DNA from: Picochlorum sp. SENEW3
Taxonomy: Eukaryota
Assembly: GCA_034226945.1 (NCBI GenBank)
Contig: CP120454.1
Location: 1,116,001 to 1,180,000, forward strand
Length of the DNA stretch: 64,000 nucleotides
Direction of reading: 5' to 3'
The position numbers and the translations under genes are program-made. The notes under the pieces are model-generated. The model searched no databases. It had not been told where the DNA came from and was given only the letters and a program-made list of their open reading frames with translations. Numbering within the stretch: position 1 is the stretch's first letter; the number at the start of each line of letters is the position of its first letter. Shown piece by piece: positions 6,804 to 53,016 of the stretch.

Positions 6804-7318
6804 ATGAAGTGCGAATTTCTAGTCGACCTTCCTTCAAAGTACGTCTCTTTATTAGCCTGTGGGTATGCTTTCTGCAAAGGATCTCTCCAAACTATCTTAT
6901 TTTTTAAATAAATTACTGTAGAGGTCTTTTGAAGCATGTTCAAGCGGGTTCTGCGTTCACCTCTCCACCACCGCTGTACATTGCTGTGCATAGCACGAAT
7001 CCTCCCAAAGGGCAGGTCGTCAGCACGGATCAGTCCAGTCTGCTGATCCGATGTCTTCAGTCTAAGAAAAAGGCTAAAGGAGACCCAAGTGGGTCTCGAA
7101 AAGGGAAAAGGCAGGCAGATGAACAGGTGGATGCACGGTCGAGGAAGCGTGCTCAGGAGGAGTCACAGGCTGGTGGGTCGTCGGTTCGGACAATATATAG
7201 TGAGGATGCGCTCGATAGAATGACTGTGAAGGAACTTCAATCTATTTTATATGAAAAGAGACAGCCTGTGAGTGGTAGGAAGGCGGATTTGATAGAAAGA
7301 GTGTTGAACTGTCAGTAG
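6804..7318 (+). CDS. DDA1-like domain plus C-terminal SAP domain protein
   Basis: MKCEFLVDLPS exon, intron 6839-6921, then PPKGQVVSTDQSSLLIR (DDA1-like) and SAP motif MTVKELQSILYEKRQPVSGRKADLIERV. Confidence 0.65.
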
Positions 7319-7373
7319 ATAGTGTACTGTATCTTTTGCTGTGTATATATAACTGTTTTTAAAGGCATTATTA

Positions 7374-8937
7374 TCATTCGTCGTCATCCGTTGTTGGTAC
7401 AAACATCGTTTCATCATCATCATCATCATCTAATGATTGTTGCTTTTCTAATTGGGTTGCATAGGCACGCATCAGTGATGCCTGCCAAATGTCCATGATC
7501 ATGACATCAGACACGTTGCCCTCGTATATGCCAGCTTGAACAGCCGCTCCAAGTGCAACAGCTAGATCAGGATCAACATGTGCAGTTTTCGGAACCAGTC
7601 CAGTCATATTTTCAACAAAGGTGCTGACTGCAGGCATGCGTGTGGCTCCTCCCACAAGCAATATTTCGCTCACTGGTTGCCTCTTTTTAGGAGTTATTTG
7701 TACCCGCGCGTCTTTAACTGCCTTCTTGGAGCGGCGTTGCCCTCCATCTCTCTTTCGTAATGCATTCTGAGCAATCTCCCATTCCTTGATGGCAGTCCCA
7801 AGGTCAACACCAGCTTGCCAGCATGCATGATCCAATGGCAGCCGTGCCCTCCTGAAGAGATCTGCTGACAATGATTCAAATTTTTGACGATTCAATGATG
7901 CTTCGATACCTCCGCCAACTGGCATCCGAATCATTGCTACATCACTTTTTGACAATTGCATCTTTGCAGCTTCTGCCACAACTTTCAGGTTTGAAATCAT
8001 CTCAGGGGTGTTTGTATCGACACCAGCAGGGAGAAGGAATTCCTTTTCAAGCCATTCAATAATGACTTGATCCCAATCATCGCCTCCCAGATGAGCATCA
8101 CCTCCAGTGGATAGTACCTCAATCACACCACCACCCACCTCCAAAAGACTCACATCAAAGGTACCGCCACCGAGATCAAACACTAGAACAGTTTGATCTT
8201 TCTCTACATTTATCCCATACGCTAACGCAGCAGCTACCGGCTCTCGAAGCAATCGAACCTTTTCCAGCCCTGCCATCATGCCCGCAGCAACAGTTGCCTC
8301 CCTCTGTTGATCATTGAAATATGCAGGTACTGAAATAACAGCCTTTGTAACAGGCTCTCCTTTAAATTGAGCCGCATCTTCTAAAAGTTGGGCAAGGACC
8401 AGTGCTGAAATTTCTTCCGGGTAAATCCCCTTCTCCTCCCTGGGGGACTCGAGCATGACCAACCCATCATCATCCTGCATTGTCCTGTACGCCATTTCTT
8501 TCACATCATCACTCACATCCCTCATCTCCTGACCTATCAACCGTTTGACAGAGTAAAATGTATTCAAAGGATCCACAGCTGCCATTCTCTTGGCTTTGAC
8601 ACCCACATATACGTGTTCTTCTCCTATTGAGACAACGGAAGGAGTTGTCAAATGGCCGTATTCATTGGGCACGATAACCGGCCTATCACCTTCTAATACC
8701 TATATAGAGACGGATTCATGTTCATGCATGGCAATGTGCGGCTATGTAGTGTGATATGCAACGTACAGCAATAGCAGAATTGGTTGTGCCAAGGTCAATT
8801 CCAGCGATACATGCCCCTGTCTGTAAAGTAGCGCTTCTTTTACTACTAGGATATGCATTATAACGTATGCAAGGCCCATTTTCAAAATGCCCATGTATCA
8901 AACCATGTTGAGCTCCGAAAGGGGTCAAGACATGCAT
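7374..8937 (-). CDS. Hsp70-family protein, ATPase domain only, probable organellar transit peptide
   Basis: GIDLGTTNS (exon 1), intron ~8700-8767, TTPSVV, SVPAYFND, DLGGGTFDVS and LVGGATRMP. Ends shortly after DPDLAVALGAA. Confidence 0.85.
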
Positions 8938-36244: not shown

Positions 36245-38347
36245 TCATCCATTCCGTGTCTTCATATCGTTTGCAAGTTTTTCTGATAGGGAACCATTCT
36301 TTTGGAAATGACGCATGTGCAGTATTGGAATGCAGCCTGCTTGAGCCATGGTTTTTCCCTGTATCAGTTCTGAATATGGTCTGGGTTTCCAAGGTGCCAA
36401 CCCATCCTCAGAGTCGGTTCCGACTTTTTGGCACACATTCATCAGGGCAGATAAGCTATTCATTTTCATGTACGGACATGATGCACAGCCACCCTCTTGT
36501 GAACACCCTTCTCCCCCAGCAGGTCCCGGCACAATTGGAATGCCACCTGGTAGGCTGGAAGACCCTTCTCCCAATACGGTGATGGCGTCCGGAGACACAG
36601 GGAATATAATCTCTACTTCTACATCGCCCCTATCAGCATTCACCAGCATGGATTGTACTTTTCGGACAATGGATGTTACCATTCCTGTCTCTGTCCCTAA
36701 GACTACTTGGATCCTTTCTGGGAATGGTCTCTCAAGGGCTTCTTCTAACTTTGCTGAAATAAAGTCCAGAATATTTTGAGTCGATCCCACGACACCCATG
36801 CCTCGTTCCCTTGCCTCCATAGCCAACGTGAACATCTCACCTGGCACTTCAAAATGTGCTGCAATATACGCATCCCTGTACACTTTCTCAGCAATCCTAC
36901 AGACTTCCCCACCAAATAAATGGTGAACAATACATGTACCTTCCTGGAAATGATGAAGCCTTGGCAAAAGTGATGCAATGGTCTCTGGAGTGTGTTCTGG
37001 GTGCAATGCAGCCACTTCTTCAGGCGTTGCTGTGGCCAGCGATTCAAACAATTGAACCAAGTTGCGCCCCATATATGTATCAGGTCCATACCATACATGT
37101 GCATCGGGGACCTGGGCAAATGCCTGCAGCACTGTCTGGACGACATTTGACGACGTACAAGTAATTGTAGGGACAATAGCATCAGCAGTAGCCTTTGTCC
37201 TCAGGCTCGTATTAATGTACACCACGTGTACCGAATTAGGAACCTTGCTTGCTTCTTTCAAATATGACTCATATGCGATACTTTCAGCGGCCTCTGCGAG
37301 AGAGCATCCAATATCATCTGCTGCCATTCTATAGACTGCCACATCAGAATATCCAGCCTCATCCAAAATAGCCCTCACATTTTCAGACATGAAATCAACT
37401 CCTAGCACAGCAACAGTTGTGCATCCAGCTTCAGCCATAGCAACTGCTCCATCTGCCATCACAAGTGAATCGGAAATCTTAATGTGAGGCCACTCGGCAG
37501 CGGCAGCACTGAGAACCCCTTGCACCTCTGGATCCATGTAAAAGTGTGCAACAATTCCAATCTTTTTCTCTTTTAATAAATTAACCAAGCTTGTAACTTG
37601 CTCTTTGTTCGGCTCCAGGAATTTCTGCTGCGATTCTGCAAATGCTCCCTGTGGAACAGTCCCATCACGGGACACCACCAAGGAGGGAAAAGTAGGTGGA
37701 CTTCCAAGCAACACATTCGTTTGCTTCTTTGCAGATTCCAACATGTTTAAAAATCCGTTTGTTCTTGATCGAGTAAGAGTATCAACCCCCAAACCAAGAG
37801 ACAGTAAACTATCAGGACTCACTGCAAGCAGCTCTTCTGGACTCAGACCGGTCAACAGGTCGGTCAACAAAGCACACAGCCCACGCGTCACGAGGGCGTC
37901 TGAATCAGCATATACAACCGCTGCATTGTCTTGGAATACCACTCTCAGCCACACCTGAGAGGTGCAGCCCATAACTCTATTCTCAGGAACTCGTACATTC
38001 GTCACATCGTCAACAGCATGCTCCCTCCCGAGAGAAATCAGCGCTTTCATCCTATCTTCATCATTCTTTCCCACAAGAACAGTATCTCTAATACTCTGAA
38101 TTCGTGATTCGACAGAAGAGATCGAGGCCGCCCCAGTTTGAGCAGTTGAAGCTCGAAACTGCTTGCCATCCCGCCCAGGATCAGAATATCGAGCATTCTG
38201 TGGCCCTGCGAAACATTGGCATGCCTTCCTATCGTTCAGAAATTTTTGCTGATGAACACGCGAGTATCGGCGAATGCCTAATGATGCAGCAGCAGGCCTG
38301 GCAGGGACGGTGCAATCAATTGCACAAGCGACTTGACCCACAACCAT
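36245..38347 (-). CDS. QS: Quinolinate synthase, plastid SufE-NadA fusion
   Basis: SufE motifs NRVMGCTSQVW and SRTNGF. NadA motifs VAHFYMDPEVQ, GCSLAE, YINTS, CIVHH, AHFE and SCPYMKMN. Confidence 0.95.
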   Translation of the reverse strand: MVVGQVACAIDCTVPARPAAASLGIRRYSRVHQQKFLNDRKACQCFAGPQNARYSDPGRDGKQFRASTAQTGAASISSVESRIQSIRDTVLVGKNDEDRMKALISLGREHAVDDVTNVRVPENRVMGCTSQVWLRVVFQDNAAVVYADSDALVTRGLCALLTDLLTGLSPEELLAVSPDSLLSLGLGVDTLTRSRTNGFLNMLESAKKQTNVLLGSPPTFPSLVVSRDGTVPQGAFAESQQKFLEPNKEQVTSLVNLLKEKKIGIVAHFYMDPEVQGVLSAAAAEWPHIKISDSLVMADGAVAMAEAGCTTVAVLGVDFMSENVRAILDEAGYSDVAVYRMAADDIGCSLAEAAESIAYESYLKEASKVPNSVHVVYINTSLRTKATADAIVPTITCTSSNVVQTVLQAFAQVPDAHVWYGPDTYMGRNLVQLFESLATATPEEVAALHPEHTPETIASLLPRLHHFQEGTCIVHHLFGGEVCRIAEKVYRDAYIAAHFEVPGEMFTLAMEARERGMGVVGSTQNILDFISAKLEEALERPFPERIQVVLGTETGMVTSIVRKVQSMLVNADRGDVEVEIIFPVSPDAITVLGEGSSSLPGGIPIVPGPAGGEGCSQEGGCASCPYMKMNSLSALMNVCQKVGTDSEDGLAPWKPRPYSELIQGKTMAQAGCIPILHMRHFQKNGSLSEKLANDMKTRNG

Positions 38348-39047
38348 GTTTTTCCCTATCTATCAACAAATATATCTAAAAAGAAATCAATTTAGTTAAA
38401 TTTAAGGACGTCTTAATTCCTGACATGTGGTATCTAGAGACTTCTTGTGGTCTGAACTATATATGTAGTGTCTTCCTATCAACTACACCCAACGACCGGA
38501 CATCTACTCCGCAGACGCACGTTTTTGGCAAAACGGAGAGAATCGCAGTCATCAGCGCCTCCAACATCGCCCACAGATACGTATTCTCCCAATGAAAACT
38601 ACAATTGTATTCTATAATTGTATGACAAGAATTTGGTATGTTTCAATGAGTTCCACGGTGTGTGTAATGATTATTTCGAACCAATCAGTTCCCGAGAAAA
38701 TGTCCTGTTTCTCGCGCCCTGGCCGTCCCCGTGAATGGCATAATTTGAGCATGCCAGGGTGATACCAGTATGCCATGTGAATAGTAATTGGCCATGGTGG
38801 GGTGGAAGGGAGGTTGGCGCCATGTTTGGGGGGTGGTTGGACAAGGGTCGGTTTCTGACATGAGCGCTCGGTTGTTGATCTTTTTGCACGGGGGATTTTG
38901 GCTTTGATGGCATGATAGTATGACGTCAAGATAGTAAAATGATATGTATCATGGGTTACGATGGTTGTAGGTATGGGAATTTTGTGGCAGCAGTAGAAGT
39001 AGTTGTTGAACGAATTTCAAGGTAGGAGTTGGCTGTGTTTCGTCATC

Positions 39048-41888
39048 ATGGTGGCGAGCAGGCGAGGCGGAAAGGGAACGACGAGGAGAAATGGCGTAGA
39101 GCAGAAGAGGCAGCGTGATTCTGGGGCTTTGTCGGAGCAATCCAAGCGAGCCAGAGTGGATGCATCTCATCACAAGGAGAATGGCACACGTGCTACACAG
39201 CATGTGGGGGCACAGACACGGCGGACTAGGATGCAGATGAAGGTGTCTGGTGGGCAGAAGGATGAGGTAGAAGCCTCTGAGAATAAATTTGATTTAGTAT
39301 CGTTGATTGAAAAGGCGGGCGCATGTATGAATTTGCCTGCTATTGAGCGTGTTTTGGAGGACACGTGGCCTTCTAGTAGAGGCAACAATCAAAATGTGCA
39401 GCATTTGAAGGAAGCGTATCGAGCTCTTGATTTAGGATATTATTCGACGAGAAAGTTGGCGGTGCCCAAAATGGCAATGATGCTTTGGCTCCTGTCTGGT
39501 AAAGTGAGTGAGGATGCAACATATGATTCAGCGTGTGCAGTGAGGAATGCGCAGCTTCCTTCGCAGTTGGACGACTTGATAAATAGACGAGGAAAGAAGA
39601 CTATTGATGGGAAAGCAGTGTTGGACAAGTATTTGTTGCAACCAGTTCATGTGAAGCCACAGCCAAAACAACTGCCCCCAGAGGATGTTGCAGACAAAGC
39701 CAAGAAGGATTTGCTGAAGAAATATTCTGACGAATTCATCCAATTAGCATCTATTGGTAGATTGGTAATGGGCCTGAAGCCTGGAGAAAAGATCACGTTT
39801 GCAAAGTTGTTCAGCACACAATTTTTGGTCAATCAAGAGTTGATGTTCAAAGCAGGAAGTAATGATTCAGTCAAGGAGGCTATAGTTGATGATCTTGGTT
39901 CTGGTATTATCTGCAGATGCAAGGGTTGTAGTAAAGCTCCTAATTCGAGACCCATGAAGCCAAAGGACTTTTTGTCTCATCTGAATACAAATGCAACACA
40001 GGCCATGGTGTATCTCAAACTCAAGAAATTCGACCAGACGTTGAATCAGTTGTCAAAATTGTTGTCCAGCGAGAAATTACGTGATCTTATGGTCGATGTA
40101 TATCCAGACCATTGCCACAAGTGCAAAGTTGGGGGCGAGTTGCTCTGCTGTGATGGTTGTACCACTGCCTGGCATGTCAAGTGCACAGAGCTGAAGGACA
40201 TGCCGGGGGACGATGTTCCTTTCCTGTGTTCTCTGTGTGAAAAGTCAGCTAAAAATTTGAAGAGCGGGTCGGTGAAAGATAGGCGTCAGCTGCAGCGGAT
40301 ACGGAACAAAACAAGCCAAAGCCAATCAAAGAAGAAGGGCAGGAAGTCACAAGGTGGATATAGACAAAGCACCGGAGGCAGGTTGCGTATGATGGCGCCA
40401 GAGAGACATGGTAGGCCCACTCGTAATCTCAATAGGAATAAAAGGCTGTTCCAAGGAGAGCAGGGTGGTTTGAGAAGTGGCATGAGGGTGTTTTACAGAG
40501 CCCGAGGAGTTGAGATATTGGGTGGTTACATCGTGATCAATCCTTCCGGTTTATCTGGAATTCGCTGCGATCATTGTGATAAGATTATTTCTTGCTCGCA
40601 ATTCGAATCGCATGCCGGTCATGCTCAGAGAAGGCAGCCATACGAGCACATTCATGTTGTTGAGGAAGGTGTGAATTTGAAAAAAATTGCTGCCCGTCTA
40701 CCAGACATCTCAGAGGGGAAAGGTGGAGAAGAGGTACACGATATTTATTCAGATTTGGATGCTCTGACTGGAGGGTGCACTTTTTGTCGCGAACCAGATT
40801 TTCAAAAGGGAGATTTTGGTTCACGGACCATCATGATTTGTGACCAATGCGAAAGAGAGTATCACGTAGGTTGCTTGGAAGAACATGGATTGGGAAAGCT
40901 AGACTCGCTTCCTGAAGGAGATTGGTTTTGTGATGATAAATGTGGACGGATTCATGGGCATTTTAAGAGTCTCGTGGACAGAGGAGAGATGAACGCTGAT
41001 ATATTGTTGGACGGACTTGAAACATCTAACGTTGACATAAATGTACCAGAGCAAATAGTCAAGGAGGAAGATCAGATGAATGGGAAGAGGCGTAGCTCGA
41101 GAACCTGCGTGATTGCGCCAAAGCCTACAGTGAGGGATAGTCCCTACAAGCTTGATATTGAGGGCTACACTTGGTGTGTGTTGAATGGTTCTGATGGAAG
41201 TGACGAAACAACCATAGCAATAACTGAGGCGAAAAAAATTCTGGAAGAGTCGTTTGATCCAATTATGGACTTGTCTACCAATACAGACTTGTTACCCCTC
41301 ATGATCCATGCAGAGCAACACGGAGAGTGGGATTACAGAGGCGTCCACACACTCTTGCTCAAATACATGGATACACCGGTTGTCGCCGCTATTGTTCGCG
41401 TCTTTGGTCCACAAATGGCGGAATTGCCCTTAATCGCAACATTAAAGTCACAAAGGAGGAAAGGGCATGCCAAGGTGCTTGTGGATCTGTTCCAAAAGCA
41501 TCTGAGTTTTGCAGGCATACACAAACTTGTGTTACCCGCTGCACACGAGACCGTTGGTGCGTGGAAAGGTGGATTCCAATTTGAAGATATGCCTCACGAA
41601 GATGTACGTTTGGCAAAGCATCAATTGAAGGTCCTCGTATTCCCTGGCACAGAGATGCTCTGGAAAACAATTGATTCCACCAGCCCTGCCACAGGTCACC
41701 ATGTCCTCAAACCCATCCTCACAGAGCAAGAGGAGAACGAGCTCATCCATGTAGCACGATCAATGGTGAATCAAATCGAGAAGGAGTTTGATCTGATTGC
41801 AAAGACAAAGGTCAGGCTGACATTGAAAATATGTCCTGCCAGCAACATGATCAAGGTGGAGTTTAGAATTGAACAGCCCGAGTCATGA
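39048..41888 (+). CDS. PHD-finger/GNAT histone acetyltransferase (IDM1/ROS4-like family)
   Basis: PHD CHKCKVGGELLCCDGC, Tify-like IRCDHC..SQFESHAG, second PHD ICDQCEREYHVGC, and GNAT AELPLIAT..RRKGH. Confidence 0.88.
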   Translation: MVASRRGGKGTTRRNGVEQKRQRDSGALSEQSKRARVDASHHKENGTRATQHVGAQTRRTRMQMKVSGGQKDEVEASENKFDLVSLIEKAGACMNLPAIERVLEDTWPSSRGNNQNVQHLKEAYRALDLGYYSTRKLAVPKMAMMLWLLSGKVSEDATYDSACAVRNAQLPSQLDDLINRRGKKTIDGKAVLDKYLLQPVHVKPQPKQLPPEDVADKAKKDLLKKYSDEFIQLASIGRLVMGLKPGEKITFAKLFSTQFLVNQELMFKAGSNDSVKEAIVDDLGSGIICRCKGCSKAPNSRPMKPKDFLSHLNTNATQAMVYLKLKKFDQTLNQLSKLLSSEKLRDLMVDVYPDHCHKCKVGGELLCCDGCTTAWHVKCTELKDMPGDDVPFLCSLCEKSAKNLKSGSVKDRRQLQRIRNKTSQSQSKKKGRKSQGGYRQSTGGRLRMMAPERHGRPTRNLNRNKRLFQGEQGGLRSGMRVFYRARGVEILGGYIVINPSGLSGIRCDHCDKIISCSQFESHAGHAQRRQPYEHIHVVEEGVNLKKIAARLPDISEGKGGEEVHDIYSDLDALTGGCTFCREPDFQKGDFGSRTIMICDQCEREYHVGCLEEHGLGKLDSLPEGDWFCDDKCGRIHGHFKSLVDRGEMNADILLDGLETSNVDINVPEQIVKEEDQMNGKRRSSRTCVIAPKPTVRDSPYKLDIEGYTWCVLNGSDGSDETTIAITEAKKILEESFDPIMDLSTNTDLLPLMIHAEQHGEWDYRGVHTLLLKYMDTPVVAAIVRVFGPQMAELPLIATLKSQRRKGHAKVLVDLFQKHLSFAGIHKLVLPAAHETVGAWKGGFQFEDMPHEDVRLAKHQLKVLVFPGTEMLWKTIDSTSPATGHHVLKPILTEQEENELIHVARSMVNQIEKEFDLIAKTKVRLTLKICPASNMIKVEFRIEQPES

Positions 41889-41994
41889 TATATATATATA
41901 TGAAGTGTCTATTAATATGCACAGTAGTGCAATTTAACATAACATGTATTCAGAAAGACGTGTGTGTGTGAGAGAGAGAGCGTGCGTGCGATTC

Positions 41995-42649
41995 TCATGG
42001 AACACCAGGGATACCACTGAATGGAACTTGTTTCTTCCATGCAAGCCACTCCTCTCCAAAGAATTTATAAAGCAGTGCATCTTCCACCCGTATCCTCAGC
42101 GCCATAAACCTCCATGTTATAATCATAAATGCAACGGTGCAACATACATTGCCCAACCAAATCTGACTACCCACGGAAAAGAGGACAAATCCCAAGTAGG
42201 CTGGATGCCTAACCACGCTGTAGACGCCTGCAGTACAGAGTCGATGTTCAGGTTTCCTTTTTGTGGCTATTTTATGCGTAAAATTATGTCCAGCAGTCAG
42301 AATAGCACTTTTTCTGATTATTTCGCCACCGAGCATCATGACACATCCGAGCCAGGCCAATGAAACTGCAAAATATTGAGGCATCTGCTGCCAGACAAAT
42401 GGCGAGAAGTTGTACTCCAAAACGCCACAGACCATTGCCGTCACATACGGTGCACTCAATAGCCACGCTACGTATGAAGGAAACCATGCATCTATGAGTC
42501 CAGACCATCACAGAGATGCATCAATATCAGTGCAAGTAAATAAACGTACAGGACTTGTCAACTTCTCCCGGGTGAAATCGCCGTGCCAAAAGATACTCCG
42601 ATACATGAAACCATATCAACAACAGAATGAAGATTAAGAGGCGTGTCAT
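41995..42649 (-). CDS. ICMT: Isoprenylcysteine carboxyl methyltransferase (STE14), 2 exons
   Basis: Exon 1 MTRLLIF..FHVSEYLLA, intron ~42468-42549, then AGHNFTH, GVYSVVRHPAY, RIRVED and SGIP. Confidence 0.9.
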
Positions 42650-43214
42650 GATGGAACATAACGGACGAATACGCTTATGGGTCCTTTTGAACAATGCCAA
42701 CGCAGTTTGACTTTCTGCACCCCATGTGGATTACACCATGGCCAACAATCTATGCGGTGCACGATTTTGATAGAAACAATAAAGCATTAATTGCGCTGCC
42801 ATGCACCCTGCGATCCAGTGAAGAGATGACTTATAACGTTCTAAACGTTTGAATTCCAACACGGTGTTGAACGGTCGGTCAATTGATTTTGCAATGGGTC
42901 TGGTCGATCGATGGGAATGGCCCATCAGCAGGATTCGATAGGTCTCGGAGACGACCAGCCCATACACTTGGGAGCCATACAGAGAAGTGGCCTAGAATAA
43001 GGCCCTCTGCTCGTGGGGTGCCAAAACAAGACCCGGAAGAGAAACACGTGTTTATTTAATTTATTTTGCTCAATATTATCTTTATTTAAACTTGAAATGA
43101 TGTATTATCACGACCTAACAACCACGCGTTGGTGTTGGCGCACGTGTGGCGGTAGTAGAGTTCACACCTGGGTTGATCTTCCACTGCAGACCAAGACCTG
43201 TGGACCCTTGAAGC

Positions 43215-44483
43215 ATGATGAGCGAAACCGATCAAGATGGAAATACACACAGGATTGTCCAGCGTGATTACCACCGTCCGAAACCTGTCACCAAGACTTT
43301 GAAGCACCTGAGACGAGTTGCCAAATCTGCTGAGCACACGTTGGGAAGGAAGATGTCCACACTTGAAGGTGGGCAGTATGTGCTGTTGGTCAAAGCTCTC
43401 AGGCAGAACAGGAGCGGTCAAGTGCATGGTACGTGCATTTTTTCGTTACTTTGAGGTTCGTTCATGTTAGTTCATGAAAGAGTTCTCTTTGCTGCAGAGG
43501 TTGTGGAGATTGTGGGCTCCCCAGGTTTGAAGGAGTCTTTTGAAGCACACCAAAGTGATGTGTTGAATGGCATTCCAGCAAACAAGGACGATACCGATGC
43601 ACCAATCGGCGAGGCCTGTGATCCGTTCCACAAAGGCGCTATGGTCGCTGAAATACTGTCTGATGTAGAAGATCGAGATCCAGGCAGGGACACCAACACT
43701 TCCAGTCCAGATGCGCCAGTACTAAAAGGAGGTCCAAGCATGACAAGGCTGCCACGGCCAGATGCAGTCGTACCGCCAGAGGACTCACAAGATTCCATTC
43801 TCGATATTGGGGGTTTTGGGGATGACGTAGATGAGGTCACTCTGATGGACTGGACTGCCCAGCAGGGTGGGAATGTGCCTCCAGTATCCCAAGCAGCTTG
43901 TGATTCTGCCCTCAAACAACCACGCGTTGCCTGCGAGGGCGTTGCTCAGAAAGATACACCTGGCAACGAAGATTCGTGGAGATCACTGGTGCATTCCGAC
44001 GACCCATTCCTGTCGCTGATCCCATGCAAAATACCACCTCTGGCTTCAGCGCTACAACAATGTCAGCACAACCACCTGAAAGCATACAAGCGCCTAGGTC
44101 TCCCTGTCTCTGGTACGAGTGACTTGACTGTCGGTTTGTTTCTTCTGTAAAGCTGTGAGGGTGTCAATGTCGACATGAGTAAATATACTGTGTGTATGTA
44201 TTGTGCAGATGACTTGAAAGGATGGTTTGAAACTGGGGTTGGCCATACCGTATGGAGCACCGTGCATGCACATTATCCTCAGGTGCTTGATCCCACTTTG
44301 GTTGCACGAGAAAGAGTGCGTAATGCAAAAGGTGCATCAACAGAGAGAAGTGAACTGGAATGGCATTCCAAGAGAGGAGTGAATTCTCCAAGTCTCCCCA
44401 GAGTGCACATCAAAGCATCCAAAGCGAGACAGAGACAGGCATCTTTGACCAAGTCTTTGAGAGATTCCGTGCTATATGTGTAG
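43215..44483 (+). CDS. Orphan 3-exon gene (~367 aa) associated with the element
   Basis: GT-AG introns 43429-43497 and 44113-44208, both phase 1, join three ORF-track pieces into one frame. Confidence 0.65.
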
Positions 44484-44798
44484 TATGGCTTATCCTCAGT
44501 ACCAGTAATCAGATGGAAGCGAAAGATAAACCAGTCTGGTGCAGGCTCCTTCTCGTTAAGCCTTGGCTGTTCTTTTACATATAACTTGTGGAATGCAGAA
44601 TTGATGTGCGTGTTTTTTCATCGGATGTATTCATGCAGAATGCAATCATCGATCTTAGTATATGCAATTTTTTTTTTCTTTTTCACTCTATTTGGAGCTA
44701 TTACTCTAACCAAGCACCAGAACGTGGTTGGTCTCTTTCTGATTGTCCCAGAAATCAGTGCTCTTTTGACAGTCCATCCACCTCATGTGTACAATCTT

Positions 44799-47294
44799 TT
44801 ACAAAAAGTCATCATTTGTTGATTGTCGGAGCTTGATTCCCACCCAAACTCGACACTTAATCCCATTGACACGTCTGGACGCAGTCTTAACACATCTTCC
44901 TCGTGCAGGATCATGGAATTGCCTGAGTTTGGATCGCATCTTCGTGAGAGAGAACTGTAGTCCCAGTGTCTTCCAAGCTGACTCAACGTCGGCAGATGTC
45001 GAAATGTCAGACTCGTCGCCAGTAATTTGAAAGATGCTGTCAATAACAGAGTCGATGTCCTGGCCATCTTCCTGAATCATCAAATCAGCTTCATTCTGGA
45101 TGCTTTCCGGAAGGTCAGGAAGCTCCCTGGAATAGTAACGAAGCAAAAGATGCCACACGATGTTTCCCATTTCTTCCGTCTCCAAGCTTTGCTTCAAAGA
45201 GGGATCTCCTTCTCTCCAAAATGATGGCCGTTCTTCCTCTGCCATTGAGGTGAAAGTTCTCTTGTCCACATATTTGGCCTTGCAATGGAACACCACACAA
45301 GTCTCCAAGGCATCCTTGGCTGAAACTTCCGACATTTCATTGGCATTGTTCACCAGGGTACATTGAGGTATGATACTGAATGGCATGCCATGGGGAACCC
45401 TGAGACGAATAGGGTCACCTCCTGACACAACTTGCTTGATCAGGTTTGCATCCAGCTTGTGCCCTTTCCCGATGCTTTCATTCGAAAACGCAAGACGACT
45501 CCACCGCAGCCCATACACCCATTTCAGTTCATATTCTGCATCACTTGCATGGGGAGTATCTCTGAATGCTTTGATATTGTACGTGCTGACCTACTCGGGA
45601 CCCAAGGCAACTCGGAGCGCTTTTTCAATCACTCCTTTGCCAGAGTTCCGGTCACCCAAGATGACGAACCATCTCTTATCTTCTGTGTGTCCAGCAACCG
45701 CTCTTGCAAGAATCTTTAATAGCGCTCTACCCTGCTCTTCGCCCAGCGTATCGAAAAACAGAGTCTTTTCAACATGGTCCAGCTTGTCTTCTGGTGGGGC
45801 TTGCTCAGGATACTCTCGTGGAACAGATACGGTGGTCATATCTTGGGGACCCACCTCACGAAAAGTCCCCATTCCGAAATCATATACGCCATTCTTCCAA
45901 AAGACTTTCTGTCGGCAGCCCTGGCCTAGACGGGCCGGGAAATTTGGATCGTCCTGGGCTTCATAGACGCTGATGATGTTTCTCATCCCATGTGCATTAT
46001 GGGAGTATTTCTTGCCGTCCAGTCTCAGGTCGATTCTGCGGCAATACTGCTGAATATTGTATGCGAAATTGTCTTTTCCTGTTTGCCACTTGCCTGTTGT
46101 GGGAGATTTTGAGTATAACTGTCCTTCAGCTCTGTAAGCAATTTCCTCCCCTGCAACCTCTTTGATGACCTGACAAGCATGCACATCGGATTCAATCGAG
46201 CGCAGCACGCATGTTACCTGCAGATCAGAAAGGTTGACTTGTCTGTCCATTTCCTTGAGAGCGAACGCCACCTTCCACGTCGTTTTCTCCTGGACCCAAG
46301 AGGACAATGCCTCCAGCCATGGTTGTTCGATATCCGTGATCTGTTGTTGTGGAACCATCAGCCCGTCAAAGCAGAGAACCACTTCATCTGCTGAAATTCC
46401 CTGTTCAATCAAAAAGGAGACGCAACAGTGGAGGATCTGATTCTCCATTTCCTGCAAGACACAGATTACAAGCCTGAATTTCACCCTATGGCTCACATTG
46501 TCCTCATTCATATCTCCTGCTCCATGTTCTGTGCTATAGATGACGTTCAGCAAGTGTTTAAACTCATCGCGACCCGATGTTATATCAGCCGCATTCTTGA
46601 ACTCCTTCTGAAGATCTCGAAGCCAGGGTAACTGTTCCCAAGCAACATCCGGAATCTTGCTTGATCCACCATACATCAGTTGTATGATGAACAACTTCAC
46701 ATCATCCCGTTCAAATCCGTGCTGTTTCCCTTCGTTGAATAAGTCACCTCGAGAATGTACGACTCGATACAACGTTTGAAAATCGTGCCCACGGCCCCAC
46801 CTTTCCAACAGCTGCAGCAAGAGGGTGGGGTGAGCGTTGACAACGTCAATGTCATGATACAGATCATGGCACAGGGTATGTCGAACCCACTTTGGGGTGG
46901 TCTGGAGACTGACACCATTCTTAGCATACAGCCTTCCACCGGGAATATTATTCTGAGATCGAAGGCGGCTTTCGCCATATTTCACGGGATAGAGGCAGGT
47001 GCCATCCTGTTGTTCCTCACAGCCAAGCATCATTGCTTCCAGCAGATGAGGAATGCTGTAATCCTGCCAATTATTATCCGCGTTTTCCAGATTTTGACAC
47101 CTGGTGTCCGATTTTTTCTTGTACATACTTTCCAAATGATCATAGTTTGCATATATTTTCCGCAGACGGTCCAGGTGAACCCGCTCCCTGAATGTCTTTT
47201 GGGCCATGCTTCCATGTAGAGGCATCGGACCCACATGGCCATTAACCGGTCGGATGCAACGTTTCTTTCCTGGGCGCGCGCTCTGTGTCATCAT
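44799..47294 (-). pseudogene. TV-Pol (PolA-like primase/polymerase) fused to D5-like SF3 helicase, with one in-frame TAG at 45591-45593
   Basis: Polymerase: GRLY, motif A DIDVVNAHPTLL, motif B RDDVKLFIIQLMYGG, motif C LCFDGLMV. Helicase: FWKNGVYDF, Walker A GDRNSGKG, Walker B LAFSNE, motif C NNANE, and a winged-helix-like end RVWVGIKL. The two ORF-track pieces are in the same frame. Confidence 0.85.
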
Positions 47295-47727
47295 ATGATG
47301 TAGTATGCATACTCTCCTCCATTGGTGATCATCATGGAGATTTGTACACCCTTAAATGACCTTAGATTCGGACAGCAGTGTCTGCTCATGGTGGGAAACG
47401 GGTACGGGACCGTTGTGCTGGTCTGCAACTTAGAGGTCTCACTGTCGAGATGAACCGGGGCAACTATCAATAGTTTCACCATATATGACTATTATGTATA
47501 TATATGAACTGGTTATTATCCTTTACCTCGTTGAATAGCAACATCTAGCGGTAACACGCGACGCCGCCGACTTCTCTGTCACATCTTTCGCCTTCGCACA
47601 CCACTATGTTTTATGCTTTCCCTATATGGGGAACGGATATGAGTTAGTTTAAAAGATTTTTCACATAGACTGCGAGAATATTTGGCGAAGGGTTCCTGTC
47701 ACCGGGCGGGGTGGTTGGCAACTACCG

Positions 47728-47992
47728 GTGGAACAGTGGAACACTGGAACACCTCTCAAACTTTTTTTTCTGGGAGATTGCATCTTTCAGTAACATCTCC
47801 TGGCCATAGATGAAAACATGCAAAAACTACTGTTCCACTGTTCCACTGTACCCAAATTTGTACTATTCTTTCCATTTTACCCTATAAATGCCTCACTTAC
47901 ACGTCAAAACCGAAATTTGTAGACCAAGGGGGAAATATACTACTGTTCCACTAGTGTTCCACTAGTGTTCCACTAGTGTTCCGGTGTTCCAT
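47728..47992. repeat. Iteron-like TGTTCCAC repeats in inverted and direct orientation
   Basis: GTGGAACA-GTGGAACA-CTGGAACA at 47728-47751; TGTTCCAC x2 plus TGTACCCA at 47831-47854; TGTTCCACTAG x3 plus TGTTCCGG and TGTTCCAT at 47944-47992. Confidence 0.9.
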
Positions 47993-48226
47993 AGTATCTC
48001 CCAGAATCATTCGACGCCGATTCCCCATATCTCTTTCACCCAATAACTTGTACTCAATAGGTTGCAGCAATTGAGGGAAAAAAAAGCAAGGTTAACTTGT
48101 AACGGTGGTTGCCTCTCTGATCTCTACCATATCCCCACAACTGACGTGAGACCGCGGTAGTCACTCAATGATCCCAAGAGCGGCACATGCGTAAAATTTC
48201 CAAAACTTTTTTCTGAGCCTCTAGGT

Positions 48227-49429
48227 ATGAGAAAAACACAAGTATACGTAGAAGATCCATGGGATGTCGACTCCTATGCTACCAAGCTCAAGACACTCTA
48301 CAGAGCCATGCATGGCCTCAAGAGGACCTCCCCTGTGGACAATGCCAAGGTACGACAATATTCGGAATGGTTGGTCCGCAAGGTCGATGAACTATATTCG
48401 TATCTGAGAGAAAAGTACACAAACTTGTCTGTGCTGTCGTCCATGATGCTCCCGGTAGCATCAGCACTCAGGCAGGAACTCGGGGAGGATCATGCCATCA
48501 CTACCAAATGGAGAAATGAGGCCACGGAACTGCGATACCGTGCTGACGAGGAAGCCTCCCATAACGTCCAAGATGAAGACTTTAAAACGTACCAAGAGAT
48601 ATGCAATCGCCGAGACTCGATCAGGGAACAGCTGGACAAGGAGCCATCACATACCATCCAGTACTGGCAGTGGTTTGCCCTGTGCTTGTACACCATGCAG
48701 CCACCGCTCCGAGCAGATTGGGCGACGCTGTCCATCGTTGATAGCGTTGACAAGGCATCTACGGGTCAGAACCATCTTGTGCTCACATCGGACAAGGCTG
48801 TCATTCCGATCCAGCAGGACAAGGTGTCACACAGGAAGGGTGGGGCCCACATTCCTGTTACTGATGAGCTCCACTCTGTGCTGTTGGGCTCCATACGCCA
48901 ATTCCCGCGATCCGTAGTCGTCCCATATACGTCTAAGTCCTCTCAAAATCCACTCCATCGATCCTATAGCCCAGACAAGCACATATCCAAGGTGAACTTG
49001 TCCAAACTGCTGAGTCAAGCCATGGCATCACCACAGGACAACACACCATGGCCACGTCCAATCCAAGGTCTCCGTAAAGCTCACTCTACCCTTGTCATGT
49101 CATCAAACGCATCCTATCATACCATAAAGCAAGTAGCAGACGCCCAACGACATTCAGTGTCGACTATGCTGTGTCACTACAACGCTGTATCACCTTGTTG
49201 TTCTGTTGAGGACGATACCAAGGCCAGCACTCCTGAGAAGAGGATTGCATCAGCCATGCAGCAAACTGGTCTCTGTCATTCTAACGTTATTATTATGACA
49301 CATTACGGCGAATCTCATAGGAATGGATCTCCTGCATGGACTCTCTACTGCAGTAATCCAGACCTGCAAGAACCTGCAGAACAGGGCCTGGCCATCATTC
49401 AGGAGGCATGCTCATCAAGAGGCCAATGA
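48227..49429 (+). CDS. Tyrosine recombinase/integrase (PLV/virophage-like)
   Basis: LYTMQPPLRADW (catalytic R), QDKV (K), QGLRKAH (R) and AQRHS..MLCHY (H, Y); open reading frame intact. Confidence 0.85.
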   Translation: MRKTQVYVEDPWDVDSYATKLKTLYRAMHGLKRTSPVDNAKVRQYSEWLVRKVDELYSYLREKYTNLSVLSSMMLPVASALRQELGEDHAITTKWRNEATELRYRADEEASHNVQDEDFKTYQEICNRRDSIREQLDKEPSHTIQYWQWFALCLYTMQPPLRADWATLSIVDSVDKASTGQNHLVLTSDKAVIPIQQDKVSHRKGGAHIPVTDELHSVLLGSIRQFPRSVVVPYTSKSSQNPLHRSYSPDKHISKVNLSKLLSQAMASPQDNTPWPRPIQGLRKAHSTLVMSSNASYHTIKQVADAQRHSVSTMLCHYNAVSPCCSVEDDTKASTPEKRIASAMQQTGLCHSNVIIMTHYGESHRNGSPAWTLYCSNPDLQEPAEQGLAIIQEACSSRGQ

Positions 49430-50018
49430 ATGTACTGTCCTCCAAGAAGAAATCAGCGCTATTATATATTTTCTAAACAGTAGTACTATGAATCGATATC
49501 AAGTCTTGCTCTGATTGACACTTGTCCTGAGCACAACAGAGAAGAGAGGAAACATGGGGTACATTATCGAGCTTTGACGCTACTCATATTTACATTCCAG
49601 GTATAAACATCGAGTAAAGTAATGAGAGATCACTCATAGTTGGCAACCATACCGTAGCGGTCAAACAGGAGACCACTATAGATGCAACAACATGCATGTG
49701 CCAATGCATGTGCAACGCCATAGAACGATGATGTACGCCACACGAGCGTCTCTTTATTTAGAATTCTTCTTTCTTGAATGCAACGCTACGCTTCATAATC
49801 ACGAGAAAAATCCATGCTAACAACAATGCATGCTCAACACCTCAGCTGATACATCACCCAGAGCAGAAAAGTCAACCATGCTGGCTCACACTCATCTCCA
49901 CAGACCTGTCCATCAGCCTCTGCTCTGATGCCCTCCCTGCCATTTTTTCGATAAAATTTATATATAAATTTTACTTGGTCCATTCAGTAGCCGAGAGGCA
50001 GCATGACTCCATCTCAAC

Positions 50019-51974
50019 TCACAGGGGTGCACCAGCAGTGGTTACCCTCCTCACACTTGACGGAATCAAGATTGCGGACTCGGGTTTTTCTCCTGAAACA
50101 ATTCCGACAATATAGCAGTAATACTCTGTGTTTGGTACTAGCTTGCTAACTGTCTCTGTTAAACTTGTAGTTTCTCCACCGAAGTCACCATAAGGGACAA
50201 ACGCATCATCAAATAAGCACGAATAAAAGTACCCGTCATATCCGGCATCCCCGGTCCACGAAATGGTGATAGAGTTAGATGACTCTATAACCGTTGTCAC
50301 AAGAGGCTGGGGAAGAGGAAGGTCGAGAATGACACCGGAAACGCTAACAACTGGATTTCCTGGAAGATCTGATTTCACCGCAGTCTGTGTCTCATCAGAT
50401 CCCTCCAGAAGGGTTGTTTGGAGCTCTACAGCAGACGAATCACTGGCATATATGATTGTACCTGTCACCAGTGCTCCGCGGCTCGGTACCAGCAAAGCAC
50501 GGCGGCGACTGGGGTATAAAAAGTAAACGCTGTATTCAATGGTACACTGTCCTCCAGGCACTAGACCATTGAGATTTGTGCAAAGCTGATTCTTATCAGC
50601 CTCGGTGAATGGATCAAGGGGATAAATCAGCATTGTGAATGTCACAGGATATGACTTACTTGGAGCAGCAGGAGCACTGTACGAGACAGACAGCCCATTC
50701 GACCTCTCTGTTGTCTCGCCATTGTTGCACTTACCGAACGCATAGATTGAATTGTATCCAGGCCCCCTCAATGGCACAGAAACACCTACAGTACTCAAAC
50801 CTTGCCTAGAAGCAGACACCTCAACAGTGGCTGGAACAGAACCGATACTTGCTCCTGTGGATGTGATCACAATTGATGCCACCGAGCAACGATTGCTGCC
50901 ACCCGTCGATTTTACCACAACATCAACATATCCCGTAGAACTCGAGCTTGGAGCAGATATCACAGGACCTGGAATGGCAGCAGGTGGTGGTGGAGATGCT
51001 GGAGGGGGTGGTGATGGCGAAGGAGGTGGTGGTGGAGACGCTGGAGGAGGTGGTGATGGTGGTGGTGGTGGGGATACCAGCGGCACCAGATCATAGCGTC
51101 TGATAAGCTTCCATGTCGTGTATGTGGACGAATCCTCGAGAAAAGTGGATGTTGCCCCGACCAATACTGCTGAAGAGCCACAATCCTGCAAGCCCAGGTA
51201 CCTCAGGCACGCTGAAGGCTTGTTGGAAGCCACCAACTGAAAGACGCCAGCATCGCTCTTAACCACCGTCCATATTTGTGATGATATCTCAGCATCATTC
51301 GACGTGGAATTCAGGAACAGTCCATTGCCATAGGGTGGAATAACGCAGGTACCCTTGTACTCTGGGTTGCCATAGAAACTGCTCACATAGCCAAGACACC
51401 TTGCGTCGTTCTCCACATCGGGGTGAACAAATGCCTGGAGAGATACAGTCACATCTTCTTGTTCAGAAGAAGAAGAAGTATTTGATACAACTCGGACCAT
51501 CCATTCCCGCCACATCATTGATTTGCTTGGGCCTCGTGCCACTGGACCAGAGGTCAGCTTGGAAGACAGTGATGGCGAACAGGTGCGATTGTAGAATCCC
51601 AGATATTCTGCAGCAGTATTTTAGACGCGTTGATTTCCACTGTTCCGAGGTTCTAGATACCAAGATGTTGCCATATGTTTGGAAAGCAAAACACTTGGAT
51701 TGGAGGGTCTCGTCCAGACAAACACATAGTTGCCCATCAAGCACACACCTTGCCCGGAAGATACGCAGCTGGATCGCGTTGTTGCCAACTCCAGGGAATA
51801 GACGCCGTCACTCAGGTCTGCAAGGCTCTGCACCACCTGATTGTCTGCTGGGATCAGCTTCGATGTATTTTCATCAAAGTATACATCTTTGACGTTTTCC
51901 GACCTTGCATAGACGTCTTCCACAATGGTACAAACTAATACCGCAAGAAGCGTGGCAAAAGTTGTCACTTTCAT
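50019..51974 (-). pseudogene. Secreted Ser/Pro-rich cell-surface protein with C-terminal FN3-like domain; in-frame TAA at 51621-51623
   Basis: The signal-peptide ORF (51621-51974) is in frame with the 507-aa ORF. Contains SPPPP repeats, RRRALL, and ITISW..Y..LVPNTEY (FN3-like). Confidence 0.7.
50984..51075 (-). repeat. Extensin-like SPn low-complexity coding repeat
   Basis: GGT/GGA-rich on the plus strand, encoding SPPPPPSPPPPASPPPP. Confidence 0.8.
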
Positions 51975-53016
51975 TTTGTTCCTTGATTCGTGTGTTATTT
52001 TACCGAAAAAGAATTCACCGAATAGAACTTCAGGAAGTATTTTTTATTCAATAGTGACTGTAGCATGTCAGGGTTTCAATGTTGTTTTGGGCTGACTAAT
52101 GCGGATGATGATATCATCGGTGTTAATGTTAATCCCCTAGGGGAACAGGCCTGTATTGCACTACTCCAATGGGAGAGTCGTGTACCTTTTCAAAGAATGC
52201 GCATCTCTGAGAGTTCTCTCCCTAAGTAGAAGCACATGAGTCTCACGAATACAAACAAGTTGCTATCAAGTCTTTTTTCCTTTCATTCCAAGACTCCTGA
52301 GCCATCTGAAACGAACCACACATCTGGTTGGAGCTACAAGATAGCCTCTCCATTGCTCTTCTTTTTCACCTGTTTGACCGTTGCCCTGCTACTGATATCA
52401 ATTCATTACTGAACGTCTTCAGCAAAAGAGCAGATCAGTCGAGTCGAATGTACAGATTGAATTTCACATGCCCCCAGCCCTCAGAGTGCAGAGTGAGAAC
52501 TCCCCAGTTTCCCTTCCTCTCGAGCAGGCATTCTCCACAGGATTTTCTCCAGTGGATACTATCCAGGTGATTGCTGAATCATCGGCCTCTTCGTTGTGTG
52601 AATGAGAGACAATAGCCTACAGGCAGAACTTGTTTTTTCCATACAGAGTTGTATCCATGCTGAGGGTATCCCATGTGTTCGCATGCGTACACAGAGGAGA
52701 GAGATTCAATCCTGGAGCAGATTTTAACCAGTCTGGAAAATATAGTTGAAAATTGTTTTACAAAAGGACGTGATACGAAGTGTTTCAAGGTGCGATTCGA
52801 CGGGGCCTAGTTTAAGGCCTCTTCCATACCTCCATTTGTGCAAAGATCAATTCTTTTCGAATATCTTGATGACATTGTGTACGTGAGTACATTCATGCAT
52901 CGATTTCTTCTCTTTTGAATAAGGGGTTTTAGCCGTGCCAAAGAAGACGGAAAGGAAGGAGCCTTTGCCAGCATCCCATGCGTTATATCGTGTAGGGGGA
53001 GCAGCAATATAACCCT

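Follow-up and report, generated by a model that had tools for sequence, protein, structure and literature searches.

Is a short block of virus-type replication and integration genes in an algal chromosome a mobile element in its own right, or what is left of something larger? The question is raised by a 64,000-nucleotide stretch of Picochlorum sp. SENEW3 DNA (contig CP120454.1, positions 1,116,001 to 1,180,000 of the forward strand), which we analysed as a whole and call the window, counting positions from its first letter. It holds a multi-copy insert of ~7 kb, between unique host genes, that runs from ~42975/43005 to 49941/49974 and contains a tyrosine recombinase, a TV-Pol/superfamily 3 (SF3) helicase replicase, a repeat-rich origin-like region and a spliced open reading frame (ORF), ORF-X. 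We read it, with a probability of about 0.68, as a member of a family of capsid-less integrative replicons in Picochlorum-type green algae that descend from the replication-integration module of virophages or Polinton-like viruses (PLVs), the copy in the window being a defective one.

Extent and parts of the element

Upon mapping a run of the same strain (X1, a 13.3-Mb assembly) on positions 39000-53000, we found that a unique contig (55 kb, 0 differences) ended at 43004 and that the next unique contig started at 49942, while between these two points the assembly graph was fragmented into short variant-bearing contigs. A preliminary description, made from the letters of the window alone, had placed a block of ~6.7 kb among host genes here, at 43079..49760; the block is borne out, and its edges lie further apart than was given, at 43004 and 49942 by the unique X1 contigs. 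At the left end, the first variant letters appeared at 43079, and the summed depth in X1 was 169 (bin 42736-43202) compared to 57 in the flank. At the right end, a contig from a run other than X1 diverged after 49974. The element comprises the following parts.

42975..43214, no strand: left terminal non-coding region, AT-rich; exact edge uncertain between 42975 and 43005
43215..43428, plus strand: ORF-X exon 1 (ATG at 43215), from an RNA contig joint
43498..44112, plus strand: ORF-X exon 2, acidic, no known domain; frames join in phase
44209..44483, plus strand: ORF-X exon 3 with stop, from an RNA contig joint
44799..47294, minus strand: TV-Pol / D5_N / SF3 helicase / winged-helix replicase gene, 831 codons with one interrupting stop
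45591..45593, minus strand: in-frame TAG at codon 568 (context gag tag gtc), just past the Walker A loop GDRNSGKG
46245..47243, minus strand: family-A-polymerase-like (TV-Pol) domain, ~residues 18-350, by structural matches of a model
47295..48226, no strand: divergent intergenic region, 932 bp, putative origin and both promoters (AT-rich at ~47480-47520, plus the repeat array)
47728..47992, three on the minus and seven on the plus strand: ten TGTTCC-core repeats, degenerate copies included
48227..49429, plus strand: Cre-like tyrosine recombinase, 400 amino acids, intact and full length, by fold match and hhalign
49430..49974, no strand: right terminal non-coding region, the most repeated part; exact edge between 49941 and 49974

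A replicase with a polymerase-like and a helicase part

The replicase gene consists of an ORF of 567 amino acids (45591-47294) and the next ORF in the same frame, the two being split by a single TAG, and reading through this stop as X gives 831 codons. A database search returned 20 relatives, of which eight were 46-96% identical. The predicted sequences of these eight contain zero stops, six of them are about full length (811-831 amino acids), and all eight carry a Tyr at the position of the TAG. Because the homologues are uninterrupted and have Tyr at this position in 8/8 cases, we consider the window replicase to be a defective copy and a recent nonsense mutant. In a run from another alga (X9), contigs end at 45590 and restart at 45592, flanking the third letter of the TAG at 45591; this break fits a two-allele site, and stop and sense alleles may coexist in that alga. 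In X1, one contig crosses 45591 unbroken.

By sequence alone, Pfam returned D5_N (8e-5) and a weak DUF5906 match, PHROG returned DNA primase families (6e-8), and the SF3 helicase motifs GDRNSGKG, an SNE motif and NNAN were readable in the protein. For the TV-Pol part, a sequence profile gave nothing in the PDB beyond chance Pumilio matches (E 0.3), and the ESM Atlas gave unnamed viral clusters plus a weak DNA_pol_A lead (0.77). The fold was modelled on an intact, 89%-identical homologue (47 aligned sequences, pLDDT 85.6) and compared with 48,161 solved chains using VIA-align. Residues 18-350 of the model matched Klenow best (Z 13.8, 291 aligned residues), then Pol theta (Z 13.4) and Aquifex Pol I (11.8), and at lower scores T7 DNA polymerase (Z 11.6), mitochondrial RNA polymerase (9.8) and T7 RNA polymerase (8.9). 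Six residues of this domain, D147, D149, E283, D309, G310 and K346, are invariant across the 47 sequences, and a conserved R-x3-K-x7-YG stretch may correspond to the O-helix motif of family A polymerases, which it resembles. Residues 365-741 of the model matched the vaccinia D5 helicase (Z 28.5), the primase-helicase of the Staphylococcus aureus pathogenicity island SaPI5 (Z 24.2, 330 residues), the African swine fever virus PrimPol (Z 21.9) and NrS-1 (Z 17.0), while residues 740-824 resembled a winged helix at Z 8.4, near the level that VIA-align deems common. Since the model matches both family A polymerases and the D5 helicase, the label of TV-Pol/SF3 helicase given to this divergent gene in the preliminary description is right, and the modelled architecture is that of TV-Pol-S3H, with a PolA-like N-terminus and a D5-type SF3 helicase; the TAG that interrupts the frame at codon 568 had been overlooked there.

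More distantly, the replicase has 49 relatives of 22-29% identity on IMG/VR viral contigs, many of ~24 kb. Scans of prokaryote genomes found no replicase relative. The metagenome scan yielded a single locus (L050:1-3543), a 65%-identical replicase without the first ~146 codons. It is flanked there by genes for a peptidase S28-like and a proline-rich, secreted-type protein, and the metagenome contig is richer in GC; this setting suggests that the copy is a remnant in some other host.

A divergent Cre-like recombinase

The recombinase has 24 relatives besides the window copy, and sequence models did not name it: it had no Pfam match even at E<=10, Phage_integrase included, no PHROG match, no PDB match by sequence profile, and no tblastn relative when its alignment was scanned on the viral contigs. 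Its AlphaFold model (pLDDT 77.8, 16 sequences) had Cre as the best Foldseek match (E 2.8e-6, probability 1.00, 344 columns), followed by TelA, XerH, IntI and XerA, a fold that agrees with the plus-strand tyrosine recombinase proposed earlier. Furthermore, five of the 49 viral loci contain ORFs that the recombinase profile matched (7e-9 to 1e-5), and hhalign aligned it to these recombinase-like viral ORFs over the catalytic domain with 96.5% probability (E 7e-10). Because of the fold match to Cre and the hhalign match to viral recombinases, we assign the protein, on its model, as a Cre-like tyrosine recombinase that is too divergent for the sequence models of Pfam and PDB. R162, K199, R283, H309 and Y318 are invariant or nearly so in 16 homologues, their catalytic roles being assigned by motif order alone, and at the position of the first catalytic His the window copy has Gln where some relatives have His.

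A 69%-identical recombinase was found in the prokaryote genome scan on a 1.8-kb contig filed under a Myxococcales metagenome-assembled genome (L051:1-1788), which is probably a mis-binned eukaryotic contig. An ORF upstream of it, likened by eye to a retroviral protease, was dropped without Pfam support. Some 40 bases directly 5' of the recombinase ATG (48185-48226; L051:449-486; GCGTAAAATTTCCA...) are kept even though the proteins of the copies compared share only 65-74% identity. Several gene calls translate this stretch in frame as CVKFP..., and it may be a promoter or leader element, or a piece of an unrecognised upstream exon.

A repeat array between the two genes

The region between the divergent replicase and recombinase genes contains the iteron-like array that had been noted there earlier, and counting confirms that the repeats concentrate at this site. 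Of the nine exact TGTTCCAC octamers in the window, seven lie within 47728-47973; 2.9 would be expected by chance in the window as a whole, and nine were reached in 1 of 100 shuffles. The ten TGTTCC cores form three groups: 47728-47751 holds three in inverted orientation, 47831-47846 two in direct orientation with 8-bp spacing, and 47944-47992 five more in direct orientation, of which the first four follow one another at 11-bp intervals. Repeat families D1, I3, I6 and I9 occur in the region, and the AT-rich stretch lies ~230 bp from the TGTTCC repeats. In other copies of the element, one 8-bp unit (at 47728) is missing or 191 nt are skipped. We infer from this layout of TGTTCC repeats and an AT-rich stretch, which fits a replication origin, that the region is a putative one.

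A spliced third gene

ORF-X had been described as one orphan gene; the gene is indeed present, and it proved to consist of three exons with RNA-supported splicing rather than one. In one metatranscriptome contig (depth 38), 43427 is followed directly by 43497, and the 69 nt left out have GT..AG ends if the cut is placed one base to the right. A second contig, of 596 nt, runs from 43886-44111 straight into 44208-44576, and the 96 nt missing from it are likewise bounded by GT..AG. In gene model P0047 of Picochlorum sp. BPE23, exon 1 is likewise joined to exon 2, with the acceptor 27 nt further on. The three exons join in phase to encode an acidic protein of 367 amino acids, for which we found 17 relatives among 1.84 billion representatives, all of them close and fragmentary. 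No exon matched Pfam (E<=1), no homologue was present in the 49 viral loci, and the ESM Atlas gave nothing usable. ORF-X might conceivably be a very divergent coat protein. Metatranscriptome contigs cover all three genes of the element.

Copies, linkage and signs of recent spread

With depths summed over contigs at least 85% alike (57 in the flank), X1 showed ~169-217 at 42736-43669, ~90-109 at 43670-46004, 59-60 at 46005-47405 and 360-543 at 48807-49740 (543 at 49274-49740). Both ends of the element are thus several-fold more repeated than its interior (~5-9x against ~1-2x the flank), as is typical of transposon families in which some members have lost internal DNA. One such derivative was caught in an X1 contig that joins 45955 to 47302 via 13 other letters, representing a copy without 45956-47301 and hence without most of the TV-Pol domain.

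Replicase and recombinase are also neighbours elsewhere. Their consecutive gene numbers in Picochlorum sp. SENEW3 (00000868, a replicase fragment, and 00000869, the recombinase) and in P. renovo (P006298 and P006299) show the two adjacent in both algae, an 87%-identical replicase and a recombinase each lie on a 48,036-bp ENA contig, and ORF-X fragments and a recombinase lie on 26,933-bp contigs, each of these two pairs being taken as one contig from equal size only. Relatives of the element's genes are named in SENEW3, BPE23, P. renovo and P. soloecismus, and family members were also found on contigs of 6.8-7.8 kb. The preliminary description had asked whether the three genes might be unlinked, single-copy, syntenic genes in relatives; what we observed instead was adjacency of replicase and recombinase in SENEW3 and P. 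renovo and multiple copies in X1. Its suggestion of an element rather than a one-off remnant accords with a unit that is recurring, multi-copy and transcribed.

A comparison with a further assembly (X10) bears on mobility. Its element contigs differ from the window in 10/1202, 2/345 and 15/798 letters (98-99% identity), while its contigs for the host right flank differ in 38/301, 71/1024 and 75/761 letters (~87-93% identity) and the left flank is nearly absent. Because the element is far more alike than the host flank, these identities point to a recent spread of the element between species.

The uneven depth could also mean that two adjacent elements are seen here, with a Crypton-like recombinase-only transposon (~48.0-50.0 kb) lying beside, or targeting, a separate TV-Pol-helicase/ORF-X element. 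The 3' half of the recombinase and the DNA downstream of it reach 6-9x depth compared to 1x for the TV-Pol part, SENEW3 has at least six recombinase gene models (684, 836, 855, 869, 873 and 280) versus the one replicase fragment found, and the DNA upstream of the 69%-identical recombinase in L051 cannot be aligned with the window. At a coding identity of 74%, however, non-coding DNA would be unalignable in any case, and the left end of the element is over-represented as well, as expected of derivatives that retain both ends. The adjacency of the two genes in SENEW3 and P. renovo, their co-occurrence at 48,036 bp (by equal size only) and the association of tyrosine recombinases with PolA and archaeo-eukaryotic primase (AEP) replicases across the virus group, as stated in preprint 10.64898/2026.10.13.758929, further argue for a single unit. 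We hence regard two separate elements as unlikely, if the most serious of the alternatives. Several of the SENEW3 recombinase models (among 684, 836, 855, 869 and 873) lie within ~40 gene numbers of each other on one 1.13-Mb chromosome, which hints at clustered or site-preferring insertion.

Coat genes and viral relatives

No coat gene was found in or near the element. Among 82 six-frame ORFs (>=50 amino acids, 42400-50100), Pfam detected 0 capsid, penton, packaging ATPase, protease or protein-primed DNA polymerase B (pPolB) genes, and among 855 ORFs of the whole 64-kb window (>=40 amino acids), hidden Markov models (HMMs) that we built from the viral relatives' own genes for virophage-type capsids, PLV-type capsids and the A32 ATPase gave 0 matches (best E 0.19). 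The same custom HMMs matched 33 of the 49 partial viral loci, and the Pfam capsid and ATPase models likewise detected their genes in viral loci. Both statements of the preliminary description on this point thus hold: that no capsid, penton, A32 ATPase, protease or pPolB is recognisable here, and that kin of the TV-Pol-SF3 helicase and integrase occur in virophages and PLVs alongside capsid genes, as 33/49 replicase-bearing loci have a capsid or A32 marker.

The best-scoring viral replicase locus (L001) has a Sputnik-type capsid gene (4e-42), and others bear a Capsid_N gene (L024) or an A32 ATPase (L042). In a replicase tree (FastTree, 47 rows, midpoint rooting), seven of the eight close algal relatives formed one clade with support 100, which adjoined L001 and an unplaced protein, and the half of the tree that contains this clade also has 4 of the 5 rows with virophage-type capsids. 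A TV-Pol phylogeny, proposed earlier as a check, thus places the algal clade beside a contig with a Sputnik-type capsid, in a tree with long branches and a midpoint root. Overall, sequence and profile comparisons support the view that the nearest detectable relatives of both core genes lie in virophage/PLV-type viral contigs. Locus L042 also carries, at 7161-8558, a glycosyltransferase fused to a Tet/JBP-type dioxygenase domain (weak Pfam matches), which may be a DNA base-modification gene.

This kinship could also come about if a complete PLV or virophage had lost its coat-gene half by deletion and the remnant had since been copied passively. Such a decayed provirus would suit the capsid-bearing relatives of both core genes, the damage in both the window copy and a second copy, and the co-variation of PLVs and a virophage with Picochlorum blooms (PMC11633385). 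Against it, this small set of genes is found again in SENEW3 and P. renovo, and the excess of both ends over the interior resembles that of transposon families whose members include deletion forms. No stop breaks the replicase frame, mostly of ~830 amino acids, in the relatives of 46-96% identity, and contigs of 6.8-7.8 kb carry family members. In addition, ORF-X has spliceosomal introns and lacks a homologue in the 49 viral loci, and zero trace of a coat gene was seen within 64 kb. With the balance lying this way, we consider decay from a provirus improbable.

Comparison with known systems

The element shares with Sputnik-type virophages and TVpol-S3H/YREC PLVs a PolA-like TV-Pol joined to an SF3 helicase, a Cre-like recombinase, and sequence or profile relatives of its genes on capsid-bearing viral contigs. 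It differs from them in having no detected major or minor capsid, A32 ATPase or protease, in its size of ~7 kb compared to their 14-40 kb, in its intron-bearing gene, and in a replicase that is ~25% identical or less to the viral ones. According to PMC12220804, TVpol-S3H and a Cre-like recombinase are the usual pair in one cluster of 14-40-kb cryptophyte PLVs, and preprint 10.64898/2026.10.13.758929 adds to the association of tyrosine recombinases with PolA/AEP replicases that replicative modules may be autonomous mobile elements. That the replication-integration modules of this virus group may be independent is a proposal already in print (PMC3671162 and the same preprint).

Transpovirons and such proposed autonomous replicase modules are, like the element, small (~7 kb) and gene-poor, lack coat genes and form part of one wider gene network. 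Transpovirons are reportedly linear plasmids of mimiviruses, carried with giant-virus particles, whose superfamily 1 helicase is joined to a polymerase that has been inactivated. Unlike these, the element is integrated in an algal chromosome and has a tyrosine recombinase, and no terminal inverted repeats were found in it, where theirs are long. Cryptons resemble it in that they have a Cre-like recombinase, lack terminal inverted repeats and show no evident duplication of the target, and possibly in the excess of recombinase-only copies in its family; Cryptons are not known to carry a replicase or origin. The yeast 2-micron plasmid is a nuclear, capsid-less element with the tyrosine recombinase Flp and cis-acting repeats, which does not integrate and is replicated wholly by host enzymes. 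It is the capsid-less state, the tyrosine recombinase and the repeats that liken it to the Picochlorum element.

The preliminary description had drawn a parallel to the bacterial satellites P4 and phage-inducible chromosomal islands (PICIs, such as SaPI). The likeness consists of an integrase, a primase-helicase and a repeat-type origin (putative in our case) without a capsid, and of a helicase part that superposes on the SaPI5 primase-helicase (Z 24.2, 330 residues). P4 itself encodes an alpha protein that binds octamer repeats at the P4 origin. The differences are a eukaryotic host, a priming domain that is PolA-like and not of the P4/SaPI kind, no recognisable genes for exploiting a helper (capsid-size redirection, small terminase, derepression) and no known helper. 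The interpretation in that description is partly supported, the analogy resting on architecture and on the likeness of the helicase fold to SaPI5 Pri-Rep. The excess of recombinase over replicase copies had escaped notice there.

Taken to its full extent, the analogy would make the element a eukaryotic satellite-plasmid that is integrated in the chromosome, excises as a circle, amplifies from the TGTTCC origin upon infection with a giant virus, virophage or PLV, and travels between algae in borrowed virions. This would explain how the element can be 98-99% identical across hosts that differ by ~10% in their own genes; we hold it to be a long shot. If true, eukaryotes would have a true counterpart of P4/PICI, and DNA elements with a tyrosine recombinase would include a hitherto undescribed, self-replicating class.

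A probable capsid-less integrative replicon

We hypothesize that, in an intact copy of the capsid-less integrative replicon that we favour, the Cre-like tyrosine recombinase would excise the element as a circle and later reinsert it, while the TV-Pol-SF3 helicase would recognise the TGTTCC repeats beside the AT-rich stretch, possibly via its C-terminal winged helix, open the DNA there, prime and copy it. The spliced 367-amino-acid ORF-X product would serve as an accessory protein. The circle, the function of the origin and this division of roles among the genes are what we would expect from the gene content. As the replicase of the window copy ends at the TAG right after the helicase P-loop, this copy, with an intact recombinase and ORF-X, would need the help of an intact copy to move or replicate.

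Several observations weigh against this interpretation. We found no significant terminal direct or inverted repeat (blastn self-comparison and local alignment of the ends) and detected no target duplication at the ends. Both copies seen in X1 are defective, one by the TAG and one by deletion, and recombinase copies outnumber replicase copies, both by depth and by SENEW3 gene models, such that the recombinase may also travel alone or with other cargo. The depth figures, being sums over similar contigs, are not true copy numbers, and X10 is a large mixed assembly (357 Mb, 3-5x depth) of a differently labelled organism. In the four runs, no contig joins 43004 to 49942, as at an empty site, or the two ends of the element to each other, as in a circle, contigs being uninformative either way. 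The replicase tree has long branches and was midpoint-rooted only for drawing, and capsid-lessness is shown for the window copy, not for the whole family.

In the search for ends, a 9-bp direct repeat CCTCTGCTC at 43004 and 49917 was rejected as being at chance level (equalled in 56/200 shuffles), as was an inverted comparison of the ends (72/200 shuffles). At the right edge, 49952-49973 form a perfect AT-only palindrome of 22 bp, ~45 bp from the stop of a minus-strand host gene.

The host DNA of the window is compact and intron-poor, with ~46% GC, and its genes are of plant or alga type, including an IDM1-like PHD protein, a SufE-NadA fusion, an ICMT methyltransferase, CAP, and BRCT/RING proteins. 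Two of the neighbouring genes, at 36245-38347 and 39048-41888, encode a SufE-quinolinate synthase fusion and an IDM1-like PHD/acetyltransferase-type protein, both typical of the plant lineage. The gene types, the named Picochlorum relatives and the 13.3-Mb size of X1 are in keeping with a Picochlorum-type trebouxiophyte as host. That the flanks are ordinary host genes and that the element's GC content does not depart from its surroundings would be in line with domesticated host genes or an assembly artefact rather than a mobile element, an idea that we find hardly credible. Several copies of the region exist, among them variants and one with a deletion, its replicase has a premature stop, its conservation in another alga far exceeds that of the host flank, and its relatives are scattered over many short metagenome contigs.

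Significance

Small coat-less relatives of virophages and PLVs have been predicted, of which only a handful are known as discrete units within the DNA of a host; our literature search found no description of such an element in Picochlorum. The present element provides a compact and bounded example, with three genes and a candidate origin, in a culturable and fast-growing alga, and it offers natural deletion derivatives as well as signs of recent spread between species. Picochlorum genomes carry D5 primase-helicase markers, and PLVs and a virophage track Picochlorum blooms (PMC11633385); the element would account for the 'D5 primase-helicase' signals that such virus-marker screens of Picochlorum report. 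It also allows testing whether the replication-integration half of a virus lives alone, or rides in the particles of other viruses.

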